A stretch of DNA of 57,757 nt from an uncultured Gammaproteobacteria bacterium (GTDB lineage Bacteria; Patescibacteriota; Microgenomatia; Levybacterales; UBA12049), in NCBI GenBank assembly GCA_964424775.1, contig CAYRJZ010000006.1:1-57757 (forward strand), in the 5' to 3' direction. The notes beneath the pieces are model-generated. The model was not told the DNA's origin, made no database searches, and worked only from the letters and a program-made list of their open reading frames with translations. The position numbers were made by a program, and so were the translations under genes. The stretch's first letter is position 1. Every line of letters starts with the position of its first letter. Shown piece by piece: positions 8,089-40,660 of this stretch.

Positions 8089-9344
8089 TAGTATGTCTGA
8101 GCAAGTTTTGTCCGTTCTACCTTATCGCTAAGAAAACCATTGGGAACGGTTGTTAATTTAGCAGCACGATATAAAAATGCGTTGCGAATAGTATGAGTTC
8201 CAAATTTATCATTAATTGCATCTCGAATAGAAAGGATTTTTTCCTTTCTTCTTTCTTCAGGGAAGAGAGGGCGGGTGAGATGAGATGAATCTTCTAAATA
8301 CCCTGCCCAGACCCCAATACGACGCACATATCCACTGGGAATATCACCAAAGTCCTTCCTGATAATTTCCATTCCAAGCTCAAAAAGATCCACACCACTA
8401 TCTACATATTGTTGCTGCGTTATATGTCCGTATACGCTATACGAGCCAAAAAGCGAAATCCCACACGAGCGGGCTTTCTTTTTCAGACGCCTTAACTTCA
8501 ACGCTACTTCTTCATATAACTCATAAATATGCTGGGCAACAACTCGCTGATCGTGCTCATTTTGAGGAAGACAGTACTGTCTTCCGACTGATTTCACATC
8601 AGGAGTCCTTGTAAAAGCAACAACGGGACGGACATCACGACCCTGACCAACATCATACAAAAAGTGTCCTTCAACATTACCAAATTCCGCAATAAGAGGA
8701 ACAAGAGGAGCTTTACGCAGCTGAGTAAGAGTGAAAATTCCCATTCTATGCAGTCGTGCTTCAATGCGTGGTCCAATACCACAAATATCTTGAAGCTCTG
8801 CTGTTTTATAGACCTCATCAATGTTACTCGAATTAATAGTAAAAATCCCATTTGGTTTTTTCATTCCAGAACCTAACTTAGCTAATATTTTATTTTCCGC
8901 TACGCCAACTGATACAGTAATAAAAGATCCAATTTCCCATTGAATCCGTGACTTTAAGTGATGGATGAGACTTTCCACACCTCCATACAAAGAGACAGTC
9001 GCAGTGACATCCATAAAGAGTTCATCAATTGAAAATACCTCAACAGTTGGAGAGAAATCATTACAGATAGCAATAAATTTTTTACTTATTTCCCAGTACT
9101 TCCAAAAATCAGCCGGTACAAAAACTATTCCCGGACAAAGACGCATTGCATCAAACGTACGAGTGCCTGTTTTGACCCCTCGTCTTTTTGCTTCACGGCT
9201 CGAAGCAATAACGCATGTTCTCCCGTTTGTTGCAGTAACGCCAATTGGTTTGTTGCGAAGAAGGGGATTGTGTTGCTGCTCTACACTTGCAAAGAAAGAG
9301 TCAAAATCTATATGAAGGATAATTCTTTTAGGAAGGCTGTCCAT
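8088..9344 (-). CDS. dinB: Y-family DNA polymerase (Pol IV/DinB); start ATG 9344 after SD AGGAGG
   Basis: ILHIDFDSFFASVE, ASSREAKRRGV, FSIDELFMD, AKLGS..KPNG and HhH GIGP motifs. Confidence 0.92.
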   Translation of the reverse strand: MDSLPKRIILHIDFDSFFASVEQQHNPLLRNKPIGVTATNGRTCVIASSREAKRRGVKTGTRTFDAMRLCPGIVFVPADFWKYWEISKKFIAICNDFSPTVEVFSIDELFMDVTATVSLYGGVESLIHHLKSRIQWEIGSFITVSVGVAENKILAKLGSGMKKPNGIFTINSSNIDEVYKTAELQDICGIGPRIEARLHRMGIFTLTQLRKAPLVPLIAEFGNVEGHFLYDVGQGRDVRPVVAFTRTPDVKSVGRQYCLPQNEHDQRVVAQHIYELYEEVALKLRRLKKKARSCGISLFGSYSVYGHITQQQYVDSGVDLFELGMEIIRKDFGDIPSGYVRRIGVWAGYLEDSSHLTRPLFPEERRKEKILSIRDAINDKFGTHTIRNAFLYRAAKLTTVPNGFLSDKVERTKLAQTY

Positions 9345-16732: not shown

Positions 16733-17428
16733 ATGTCTATAGATGAGGTTCAAGTTCAAGATGAATATGGAATTCAAGGCGGTGAGTCTATCCACTTCTC
16801 TGAAATAGAGAATTTAAGAACACCTTTGCTTGAAATTCTGAAACAGATCAAACCAGCCATTGATTCACGAAGATACGGGATGTTAGTGAGTGATGACACG
16901 GGTGGACGAATCCCAACGATTATTCTAGGACGAACTATTAACCGGTACTATTTTAAACACGGACAACGAGCAGTCCCAAGTATATTTATCCAAGGATCAA
17001 GAAACATGAAACATCTTCCGGATATGTTAAATGCCTTTCAAAGTAGAAGTCGGGCACTATCTTCTGTTCAGCCGGATCAAAGAGCACTTCTCGTAACTGA
17101 ACACATAGGTCAAGGAATTAATTTAAAACACTTTACAACTATTTTTAATTCACTCAAACTCCCATATGATGTGGCAGCAATTGAAGCTTCTGTTTCTGAA
17201 AGAAAATACCAAATTGAAGAATGTTTGGCACAAGAGTCTCATCTCTTTGCCGGAGATTCAGATTTTAAAGCACACTTTATTGATTTCAAATATACAGGAG
17301 TAAATCCTGAAAAATACACAGGAATAAAATTTATTACCGACCCGGAAGTACGAAAATATGCTCGTGTTGCACTTCAAGATGCACGTTTAGTCAGTAATCA
17401 ACTCCTCGAGGAAATTGAGAGAATATAA
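16733..17428 (+). CDS. Hypothetical protein, possibly degenerate PRTase-like fold
   Basis: LVSDDTGGRIP and ALLVTEHIGQG resemble phosphoribosyltransferase motifs; weak. Confidence 0.5.
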   Translation: MSIDEVQVQDEYGIQGGESIHFSEIENLRTPLLEILKQIKPAIDSRRYGMLVSDDTGGRIPTIILGRTINRYYFKHGQRAVPSIFIQGSRNMKHLPDMLNAFQSRSRALSSVQPDQRALLVTEHIGQGINLKHFTTIFNSLKLPYDVAAIEASVSERKYQIEECLAQESHLFAGDSDFKAHFIDFKYTGVNPEKYTGIKFITDPEVRKYARVALQDARLVSNQLLEEIERI

Positions 17429-17433
17429 AGATG

Positions 17434-17507
17434 TCGGGGACAAAGGACTTGAACCTTCGACCTCACGGTCCCAAACCGCGCGCTCTAGCCAACTGAGCTA
17501 GTCCCCG
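17434..17507 (-). tRNA. tRNA-Pro(UGG), no encoded CCA
   Basis: CGGGGAC acceptor; GCGG-TTTGGGA-CCGT anticodon arm. Confidence 0.95.
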
Positions 17508-17518
17508 AAATATTCTGG

Positions 17519-17604
17519 TGGTGCCGCGGGGGGGACTCGAACCCCCACGTCCTTGCGAACAAGGGCTCTTAAGGCCCCCGTGTATACCATTTCACCACCG
17601 CGGC
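17519..17604 (-). tRNA. tRNA-Leu(UAA) with encoded CCA
   Basis: GGGGC-CTTAAGA-GCCCT anticodon arm, long variable arm, ACCA end. Confidence 0.93.
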
Positions 17605-17843
17605 ATAGTATCGATTTCTTTGATTATTTCTCTTCCAAAACCAGATTTAAAAAAAATTTCCATTTTTCTTGCGTCACTGATAATATCAACTATTTCAACG
17701 TGTACAAGTACAACCGGCAGTTTATTTTTCGTAAAAGTTACTTTTCCTCCATCATGCTGCGCTAACCTTACACCAAGATTAGAAGTTAGTCCTTTATAAT
17801 ACTCACCTGTACGCAAACTTCTGAGTATATAAACAAAATACAT
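17592..17843 (-). CDS. Small stand-alone GIY-YIG nuclease
   Basis: YFVYIL...YYKG, RLAQH and conserved Glu (KMEIFFK); last codons and TGA stop lie within the 5' 13 nt of tRNA-Leu. Confidence 0.85.
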   Translation of the reverse strand: MYFVYILRSLRTGEYYKGLTSNLGVRLAQHDGGKVTFTKNKLPVVLVHVEIVDIISDARKMEIFFKSGFGREIIKEIDTMPRW

Positions 17844-17856
17844 TGTAAAACTTTGC

Positions 17857-17902
17857 GTGTATACCCCTGCCTGCCGGCAGGCAGGATTTCACCACCGCGG
17901 CA
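17857..17902 (-). repeat. Duplicated 5' end of tRNA-Leu (26 bp) interrupted by perfect 20-bp palindrome CCTGCCTGCCGGCAGGCAGG (17866-17885)
   Basis: GTGTATACC + ATTTCACCACCGCGGCA here matches 17580-17605 exactly once the palindrome is removed. Confidence 0.95.
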
Positions 17903-17910
17903 ATGTGCAT

Positions 17911-17940
17911 ATTTTACTTGATTTGCCGTGCTCTAAGCAA
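17911..17940 (-). promoter_or_regulatory. Sigma70-like promoter TTGCTT-18-TAAAAT upstream of the disrupted tRNA-Leu 5' copy
   Basis: -10 at 17911-17916 and -35 at 17935-17940; 9 nt separate the -10 from the first G of the fragment. Confidence 0.55.
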
Positions 17941-17961
17941 CTTGTAAGATAAAGGAATGCT

Positions 17962-18924
17962 TTATTGATGTGAAGGTGGGGGAACACCAAGTCTTTTTAA
18001 GGAAAGATCCAGAAAATTTCGCATTTCTTCTCGTCTATTTTCACTATTTAAGAGAATACCGATAATGTGATGTCCTTCATAGTCAAGATAGGAGACAAGG
18101 CACATCCCAGCTTCAGGAGTAAATCCAGTCTTTACTCCTTTCACTCCGGGATACGTCGTCAGGAGATTGGTCTCGTTAAAGAGATGAAATTCTTTATGCC
18201 TGTCATTTGCCGGTATAATGTATTCATACGTTGAGACTATCTTTCTCATTTCTGGATAATTACTTAACATATATCTTGTCATGACCAATAAATCATAGGC
18301 TGTTGTATATTGCACGCCATCTCCTTGCAGACCTGAAGGGTTGCTAAATTTTGTATCAGAAAGACCGAGTGACTTTGCCTTATCATCCATTGCTTTTAAA
18401 AACGCCTCTCGACCTTGCGGGTGATTATGCGCGAGTACTTCGGAGGCGTCATTACCTGAATTGAGCATCAGTCCATAAAGTAACTCTTCAAGTGTGAGTA
18501 TTTCACCAGCTTCAAGTCCCATACTATCTTCACCGACGAGATCCACTGAACGAACAATATACCTATCATTTTCCTTTCTATTTTCCAGTGCCACAATTGC
18601 CGTCATTATTTTAGTAAGTGAAGCCATAGGCATTTTCTCTTTTGCATTATGTTCAAAAAGTGTTTTATCTGTAGTTAAGTCATACATCAGAACTGACTTC
18701 GCAGTAAAATCAGGAATTTCTTTTTCACTTCCCTGAATCTTCTCAATAAAAGGAAGCCATACATCTATCAAGGTAACTTGTGAGTTTTCACTACGAGTAA
18801 GAAAAGAAGGAAGAGGGGATTCATAAGAAGTATCAGATGACGTTCCATTAAAAAAAAATGAATAGATAAGTACCAGAAGGAGGGAGCATAGACTGATAGA
18901 CAGCAAGTACCAGAGTCGCTTCAC
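17962..18924 (-). CDS. D-alanyl-D-alanine carboxypeptidase (peptidase S11)
   Basis: SLTK (SxxK), SGN (SxN) and KTG motifs; N-terminal TM. Confidence 0.93.
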   Translation of the reverse strand: MKRLWYLLSISLCSLLLVLIYSFFFNGTSSDTSYESPLPSFLTRSENSQVTLIDVWLPFIEKIQGSEKEIPDFTAKSVLMYDLTTDKTLFEHNAKEKMPMASLTKIMTAIVALENRKENDRYIVRSVDLVGEDSMGLEAGEILTLEELLYGLMLNSGNDASEVLAHNHPQGREAFLKAMDDKAKSLGLSDTKFSNPSGLQGDGVQYTTAYDLLVMTRYMLSNYPEMRKIVSTYEYIIPANDRHKEFHLFNETNLLTTYPGVKGVKTGFTPEAGMCLVSYLDYEGHHIIGILLNSENRREEMRNFLDLSLKRLGVPPPSHQ

Positions 18925-40635: not shown

Positions 40636-40660
40636 AACCTTCCATATGGAAGGTTTTTTT
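40636..40660 (+). terminator. Riboswitch expression-platform terminator
   Basis: AACCTTCC-ATAT-GGAAGGTT plus T tract ending immediately before ATG 40661. Confidence 0.8.

Follow-up and report, generated by a model that had tools for sequence, protein, structure and literature searches.

What is a perfect, GC-rich palindrome doing inside a crippled tRNA copy that stands directly ahead of a small nuclease gene? The window (the whole stretch of DNA analysed here, 57,757 nt or 57.8 kb) contains the sequence CCTGCCTGCCGGCAGGCAGG, henceforth referred to as PAL, a perfect 20-bp palindrome composed of two 10-nt arms with no spacer between them (Table 1). As an earlier note on this DNA had described, PAL is a GC-rich palindrome in a low-GC genome (80% GC against 37.9% for the window) and lies in the D-loop of an upstream tRNA copy. 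The same note placed it 22 bp from the start codon of a GIY-YIG gene, and PAL is indeed separated by 22 nt from the ATG (17843) of an 83-aa open reading frame that matches PF01541. On the minus strand PAL is flanked by ...TGCCGCGGTGGTGAAAT (17902-17886) and GGTATACACG (17865-17856), and these flanks, when joined, match positions -1 to 26 of the neighbouring tRNA-Leu(UAA) (17605-17579) at 27 of 27 nucleotides. Because the flanks form an uninterrupted 27-nt tRNA copy, PAL must be an insert of exactly 20 bp, with no base duplicated or lost, and it is situated between tRNA nucleotides 16 and 17 (plain count), immediately 5' of the D-loop GG. The part of the copy ahead of PAL covers the 5' strand of the acceptor arm, the D-stem and the start of the D-loop, and the part that follows covers the remaining D-loop and the 3' strand of the D-stem. 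At the other end, the final 13 nt of the nuclease gene (four codons and the TGA stop) are themselves positions 1-13 of tRNA-Leu. The insert between the repeats amounts to 298 bp, with one 83-aa nuclease gene and no further gene.

Table 1. Positions of PAL and of the features around it in the window.
Feature	Position	Strand	Description
PAL, CCTGCCTGCCGGCAGGCAGG	17866..17885	.	single-strand form: 8-bp stem and CCGG loop; DNA hairpin energy -8 kcal/mol
tRNA fragment, part A	17886..17902	-	tRNA-Leu -1 to 16; 17/17 identical to 17589-17605 (direct repeat D1)
tRNA fragment, part B	17856..17865	-	tRNA-Leu 17 to 26; 10/10 identical to 17579-17588 (direct repeat D3)
Spacer, end of tRNA copy to start codon	17844..17855	-	12 nt; no Shine-Dalgarno-like sequence visible
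GIY-YIG nuclease gene, 83 aa	17592..17843	-	PF01541
Intact tRNA-Leu(UAA), functional copy	17519..17604	-	ARAGORN; Rfam tRNA 57.9 bits; directly downstream of the nuclease gene
tRNA-Pro(UGG)	17433..17507	-	ARAGORN, Rfam; 11 nt beyond tRNA-Leu
Sigma-70-like match TTCACA-17-TATCTT	17946..17974	-	weak; consensus scan alone, 9/12 matches; upstream of the tRNA fragment

The tRNA-Pro(UGG) gene is probably on the same transcript as tRNA-Leu, and the sigma-70-like match upstream is a candidate for the promoter of the former tRNA gene, which would now read through fragment, PAL, nuclease and tRNA. Directly downstream of the tRNA pair, a 231-aa open reading frame on the plus strand (16733-17428) has no Pfam match at E 0.01. 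We considered and rejected three conventional identities for PAL. It is not an intrinsic terminator, as there are no terminator-like sites in 17400-18050 and PAL is followed by GGTATACACG with no T-run; it does not belong to a known RNA family, as the Rfam matches are confined to the two tRNAs, with none at PAL; and it is unrelated to its own flanks, which argues against an origin from P-nucleotides or by fold-back. No second copy of PAL occurs in the window even when up to 3 mismatches are allowed, and 0 of 100 shuffles gave a match. The window does contain two more perfect 20-bp palindromes that are unrelated to PAL, GGAAGACAGTACTGTCTTCC (8566-8585) and AACCTTCCATATGGAAGGTT (40636-40655), making three in 57.8 kb against approximately 0.1 expected from base composition by our own arithmetic; perfection over 20 bp is therefore no distinction of PAL within the window. 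PAL is set apart by its GC content, by its position and, above all, by its recurrence elsewhere.

Scanning one genome per species, we found exact copies of PAL in at least 120 stretches, each from a different genome; by our own arithmetic, a given 20-mer is expected to match by chance about 0.5 times in 596 Gb. The hosts comprise Patescibacteria, Bacteroidota, Omnitrophota, Planctomycetota, Bdellovibrionota, Thermodesulfovibrionales, Elusimicrobia and Verrucomicrobia, together with metagenome-assembled genomes labelled Gamma- or Deltaproteobacteria. Cultured Bacteroidota are represented by Winogradskyella, Flagellimonas, Longitalea, Aquiflexum and Aestuariivivens, and a further 35 stretches come from viral contigs. 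The suggestion that PAL is a chance palindrome, or an artefact of sequencing or assembly such as an adapter or chimera, is refuted. Beyond the fact that metagenome assemblies make up most of the records, nothing specific speaks in its favour. The same module appears in assemblies from many studies and technologies, including long-read ones, and in isolate genomes (Winogradskyella, Flagellimonas, Longitalea and Aquiflexum); its distribution over phyla is restricted, and where PAL lies within Pfam-matched domains the reading frame is kept across it.

The recurrence extends to the arrangement around PAL. Among 89 relatives of the nuclease (all loci with enough upstream sequence; mean identity about 55%), 69 carry an exact PAL at a distance of 8-40 nt ahead of the open reading frame; the earlier note's remark that similar palindromes lie near GIY-YIG genes in other genomes is correct, and strongly so. 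We also took 80 metagenome loci for encoding nuclease relatives (48-69% identity). A same-strand tRNA starts -29 to +73 nt from the end of the open reading frame in 74 of these, the tRNAs including all six Leu anticodons as well as Asn-GUU (mostly Leu, some Asn), and exact PAL is found no more than 140 nt upstream in 64. Between them, the genome count and these loci dispose of the idea that PAL might be unique and unconnected with GIY-YIG genes. Viewed from the side of PAL, a nuclease relative is present in 9 of the 120 genome stretches (among the matches listed, in stretches of up to 8 kb). In four of the nine (L037, L060, L106 and L118) PAL lies 20-43 nt ahead of the nuclease gene; L099 looks like these, but the end of the locus cuts it. 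The architecture of the window is repeated at tRNA-Lys(UUU) in a member of WWE3 (L037) and, in two Chitinophagales, at tRNA-Gly(UCC) (L106) and tRNA-Leu(GAG) (L118). In L060 (3861-4145), PAL and the GIY-YIG domain form one open frame inside the type I specificity subunit HsdS (Methylase_S), in its conserved central linker; there the host reading QDPNDPP resumes after PAL in another frame.

It is well supported, in our judgement, that PAL is the invariant cis-element of a family of selfish cassettes, minimal in size, that reside in tRNA genes. Equally well supported is the order of these cassettes: a non-functional, displaced tRNA fragment with PAL in a loop (usually the D-loop), then 8-40 nt, then a nuclease gene of about 80 aa, then an intact tRNA. 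The intact tRNA is of the same kind as the fragment and abuts or overlaps the nuclease gene. The window holds a complete, undecayed cassette at tRNA-Leu(UAA), which groups with that of L121 (67% identity, same tRNA, same PAL position). Most of the loci that depart from the exact 20-mer have PAL at the same spot with one or two mismatches or in shortened form (L077, L123, L128, L129, L137, L144 and L163), and L159 has other hairpins. In one mirrored locus (L164, 545-1000), an intact tRNA-Leu(UAG) is followed by the nuclease gene, PAL and a near-complete 3' part of the tRNA (position 23 to the end), which shows that the layout is able to restore one half of a tRNA as well as the other.

Two loci show further arrangements. 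L121, whose cassette is the closest relative of that in the window, has another GIY-YIG gene (562-759), more distantly related, in the space between tRNA-Leu(UAA) and tRNA-Pro, where the window has a gap of 11 nt, and this gene has neither an upstream palindrome nor a tRNA fragment. In L039 (860-1260), the D-loop of a tRNA-Val 5' fragment holds a different, nested GC hairpin (CCCGCCCG...CGGGCGGG), and the fragment is followed by a truncated remnant of a distant GIY-YIG gene and then by intact tRNA-Val, behind which PAL forms part of a large nested insert in a T-arm fragment. As to covariation between nuclease clade and hairpin, L039 and L159 are anecdotes alone.

At approximately 30 loci in which both tRNA copies are comparable, the insert is exactly 20 bp and the fragment is contiguous across it. 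The clean insertion without target duplication that the earlier note had read from the window is thus seen there and at these other loci alike. The commonest site is the 3' end of the D-loop, with the junction ...GG(C/T)A(G/T)A | CGCGCA..., and other lineages have PAL at plain positions 11-12, 12-13, 15-18 or 20-21; at most loci it falls within the D-arm, and in L106 it sits at the junction of anticodon stem and loop. In displaced 3' fragments behind intact tRNAs it is found in the T-loop, T-stem or variable arm (L128, L157, L169 and L192). PAL is always in the crippled tRNA copy and never in the intact tRNA, the mirrored L164 included. Members of a nuclease clade have the position of PAL in common, and the type of tRNA changes about 24 times on what is a poorly resolved tree.

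To describe what is conserved, we aligned 51 distinct cassettes. All 20 columns of PAL are invariant (2.0 bits each); these cassettes were chosen for the exact 20-mer, and the corresponding unselected figure is the 69 of 89 given above. Identity in the 25 nt before and the 30 nt after PAL is 35-37%, and that of the proteins averages 55% with a minimum of 35%. Such variants of PAL as we found are single, uncompensated changes, and PAL is perfect even in L146, with its decayed tRNA fragment, and in L166, from which the fragment is gone. Invariant letters, variants that are uncompensated, and a palindrome that outlives its fragment point to a constraint on the letters of PAL, and not on pairing alone or on the fragment.

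This constraint bears on two explanations in which PAL serves the cassette merely as a structure or as a spacer. According to the first, PAL acts at the RNA level, as a very stable 5'-leader hairpin in an mRNA read from the old tRNA promoter, and controls how long the nuclease mRNA lasts or how it is translated or processed. The hairpin is stable and precedes the start codon by 8-40 nt throughout the majority layout, and T4 homing endonuclease genes, segB included, commonly have a translation-regulating RNA hairpin upstream (PMC2988022). However, there is no covariation, the sequence being invariant rather than the pairing; the mirrored layout has PAL after the open reading frame; the PALs of 3' fragments precede no open reading frame; and for the solo copies that lie between genes or inside FtsK, GatB and S6 there is no nuclease mRNA on which to act. 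We consider this explanation quite unlikely. The second, which we hold to be about as improbable, is that PAL is a mere scar of immunity or anti-deletion, any D-loop insert sufficing to block cutting by the nuclease and to shorten the direct repeat through which the gene could be deleted. PAL is confined to the crippled copy and at most loci to the D-arm, and it splits the 27-nt repeat of the window into 17 + 10 nt, all of which favours such a scar. Yet a spacer need not keep an identical 20 letters across lineages and phyla, nor does a scar explain the solo copies. Pure immunity, a role that the earlier note had entertained, also fits poorly with L146 and L166, in which PAL persists in perfect form with no target left to protect.

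The protein encoded next to PAL has PF01541 as its sole Pfam match (E 1.5e-9), and it retains all of the residues that are invariant in the family (Y5, Y16, G18, R26, E50 and E62). Using a profile of 61 relatives, we obtained the best matches to 1ywl (E 3e-10) and 1zg2 (E 7e-10) (UPF0213), followed by SLX1 (7cq2, E 1.2e-3); the same profile matched the catalytic domain of I-TevI weakly. In an AF2 model (pLDDT 95) one compact domain fills the whole protein, and Foldseek with the AlphaFold model returned the same order as the profile, with 1zg2 at the top and SLX1 (7cq3) at TMq 0.65 and 2.6 A. The relatives are 71-126 aa long, and the 83-aa protein has no separate DNA-binding region. By profile and predicted fold, the nuclease is a bare catalytic core from the structure-specific branch of the GIY-YIG superfamily, of the single-domain UPF0213/SLX1 type. 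The likeness to UPF0213 (YhbQ-like) proteins and SLX1 thus lies in the best sequence and fold matches and in the single compact GIY-YIG domain; we found no report of a mobile context or a cognate palindrome for either in the literature. SLX1 itself needs SLX4 and has a RING/PHD domain.

Small GIY-YIG genes with selfish habits are familiar from phages, and the comparison is instructive in both directions. Seg and I-TevI enzymes, at two to three times the length of the 83-aa protein, include a DNA-binding region at the C-terminus. The protein of the window shares with them the GIY-YIG catalytic domain and its conserved catalytic residues, but is an 83-aa catalytic core to which no DNA-binding region is joined. 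SegB of T-even phages is encoded by a free-standing GIY-YIG homing endonuclease gene between tRNA genes (PMC2988022). Like the cassette gene, Seg-type genes are small, selfish and situated beside conserved genes that include tRNA genes; hairpins are common upstream, and there are hints of presence and absence among relatives. Unlike it, they involve no rebuilding of a tRNA, no displaced tRNA fragment and no invariant palindrome. Integrative elements that target tRNA genes by means of tyrosine or serine integrases likewise enter a tRNA gene and restore it with a copy of the displaced part that they bring along, but theirs is a duplication of the 3' part accompanied by an integrase, whereas here the 5' part is duplicated.

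Most copies of PAL are found away from any such gene. Approximately 95% of copies are solo, meaning that no same-clade nuclease gene lies in the stretch of up to 8 kb (among the matches listed). Flank preference is weak (A/G before, T after), with no conserved tetranucleotide, and we rejected a target-site duplication, since only 5 of 125 copies are flanked by a repeat of 5 nt or more, all of them in short tandem-repeat contexts. PAL is enclosed by another stem, in its loop or at its centre, more often than expected (20 sites against 7.1 for stems of at least 6 bp, and 11 against 2.6 for stems of at least 7 bp), and in L018 and L042 it is nested in the centre of another PAL. Seventeen of 167 copies are within 500 nt of a tRNA, some of them being remnants that lack an open reading frame (L001 and L004), and removal of the 20 bp restores a tRNA call in L030 (Val) and L225 (Met).

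Inside real genes, PAL reads xLPAGRQ in 9 of 12 cases. A Pfam domain match runs across PAL in FtsK_SpoIIIE, GatB_N, Ribosomal_S6 and an NAD-dependent dehydratase; the frame has therefore been kept, which is impossible for a bare 20-bp insert, and survival within genes is limited to events whose net length is a multiple of three. In-frame xLPAGRQ was seen at L013, L104, L047, L021, L014, L043, L071 and L074, the hosts being FtsK, GatB, ribosomal protein S6, an NAD-dependent sugar dehydratase, a PMT_2 glycosyltransferase and others, and two in-frame cases have a 24-nt form, GAC-PAL-GTC, that reads DLPAGRQV.

Other solo copies occur in repetitive surroundings. A 29.5-kb viral contig (L221, L228 and L229) carries at least six PAL copies and no same-clade nuclease gene; its copies are inside two larger repeat families, some of them inverted. 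L207 has three copies, two of which are 13 nt apart. Many solo PALs are in intergenic, short, word-like tandem repeats (such as aattacg x3 or gagtgatc; L101, L082, L002, L035, L050, L058, L209 and others), some of them flanked by direct repeats of 7-14 nt. In L011, L016 and others, a second GC-rich palindrome, TCCGCCAGCTGGCGGA (core CGCCAGCTGGCG, 8 loci), occurs near PAL in unrelated phyla, and this suggests a wider set of shared hairpins.

The solo copies speak for an explanation in which PAL is an independent hairpin mini-transposon of some other enzyme that lands in the loops of structured DNA, the tRNA fragments being harmless landing pads and the association with GIY-YIG genes indirect. 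Solo copies being the majority, the roughly threefold enrichment in loops and centres of other hairpins, the nesting of PAL in itself and the contig with at least six PALs and no nuclease gene are all as such an element would have it, as are PALs in T-loops and variable arms of 3' fragments, PALs in tRNAs without a nearby open reading frame, and other GC hairpins nested in similar fragments (L039 and L159). Random landing is hard to square, however, with near-universal occupancy of the cassettes (69 of 89 exact and most others near-exact), with a fixed distance of 8-40 nt to the start codon across cassettes that are 35-69% identical, or with a PAL that is perfect where the fragment has decayed. 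On balance we judge it unlikely.

A dispersed palindrome with a linked nuclease gene recalls REP/BIME sequences and their RAYT (TnpA-REP) proteins, and a REP-like mini-element, perhaps mobilised by the GIY-YIG protein, is what the earlier note had proposed. The analogy is a fair one: in both cases a short, GC-rich, dispersed palindrome is linked to the gene of a presumed nuclease, and the palindromes outnumber the enzyme genes. Membership of the REP/RAYT system nevertheless fails on every feature that we compared. RAYT is an HUH/Y1 transposase, whereas the enzyme here is GIY-YIG with a UPF0213/SLX1-like fold; REPs flank their gene in inverted orientation on both sides, whereas the window has a single PAL, upstream only; and REPs are imperfect with a conserved 5' tetranucleotide, whereas PAL is perfect and its flank is not conserved. 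Moreover, REPs are species-specific and number tens to hundreds per genome, unlike PAL, which is identical across many phyla and apparently of low copy number (one in the window), and the gene linked to PAL sits in a tRNA duplication. REP/RAYT is an analogy for PAL, and PAL is not a member of it. Rickettsia palindromic elements and the GC clusters of yeast mitochondria are likewise GC-rich palindromic inserts in AT-rich genomes that can lie in frame within genes and add a peptide, and they are 35-150 bp long and lineage-restricted. PAL, by contrast, measures 20 bp, has one and the same sequence in different phyla and is linked to a nuclease-tRNA cassette.

The reading that we favour, with confidence a little above even, is that PAL is both a cis-element of the tRNA-lodged cassettes and the cognate site of this nuclease clade. 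PAL would be a DNA site that the nuclease, probably as a dimer, reads as a hairpin or cruciform; we take support for this reading from the nearest solved structures, which are those of UPF0213 and then of SLX1, a structure-specific nuclease. PAL would be needed for the cassette to propagate and may delimit the segment copied during invasion of another tRNA gene, and its interruption of the redundant fragment may keep that fragment from serving as a target or as a recombination partner for deletion of the nuclease gene. Solo PALs could then have been made in trans, by this nuclease working on structured DNA such as the cloverleaf loops of tRNA genes or the tips of hairpins, or else remnants, and those in genes would persist only where the frame is kept.

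Several observations count against this cognate-site reading. It is doubtful that an 83-aa core lacking a DNA-binding domain could read a sequence of 20 bp; the great majority of PALs, again among the matches listed and within stretches of up to 8 kb, have no same-clade GIY-YIG gene beside them; the viral contig has many PALs and no such gene; and some neighbouring, more distant GIY-YIG genes, such as the second gene of L121, have no palindrome at all. In addition, the D-loop of the intact tRNA is uninterrupted, so the simple logic of homing, in which insertion destroys the target, does not close. With regard to mobility, contigs in three metagenome runs match 17432-17607 (tRNA-Pro and tRNA-Leu) with 0 differences; beyond this, at the place of the nuclease gene in the window, their sequence is unrelated. 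The flank of these contigs compared with the upstream flank of the window gave a score of 23, against 24 for the best shuffle, and thus falls short of convincing homology. An identical tRNA pair followed by divergence means that there are organisms with the same tRNA pair without the cassette, and the contigs give a weak indication, from sequence comparison, of an empty site.

A bolder version, which strikes us as unlikely, is that the 20-bp hairpin is itself a mobile DNA element and among the smallest known. It would be copied or pasted without target duplication into loops of structured DNA (the cloverleaves of tRNA genes, the tips of hairpins and its own centre) by an SLX1-like nuclease of about 80 aa acting in trans, with the nuclease gene riding tRNA genes behind one hairpin; the pair would have crossed many bacterial phyla and their viruses without any change to the hairpin, which would occasionally add LPAGRQ to essential proteins.

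In the searchable literature we found no published description of the cassette and no paper that joins GIY-YIG with a bacterial tRNA palindrome, and neither the 20-mer nor the peptide LPAGRQ appears in any searchable paper. If the cognate-site reading is true, the cassette represents a selfish element, new and minimal at about 300 bp, consisting of a single-domain nuclease, a 20-bp site and a rebuilt tRNA, that spans Patescibacteria, Bacteroidota, Omnitrophota, Planctomycetota and others, and it would show how a structure-specific nuclease of the SLX1 type can drive mobility. How an 80-aa protein is tied to a 20-bp sequence becomes testable, and the protein offers a very small scaffold for a programmable or site-specific nuclease. 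Cassettes, decayed tRNA fragments and horizontal transfer across phyla can readily be traced by the 20-mer, which also accounts for otherwise enigmatic inserts of seven residues (xLPAGRQ) in proteins such as FtsK, GatB and ribosomal protein S6. For annotation, the displaced fragments should not be called tRNA pseudogenes of unknown origin.
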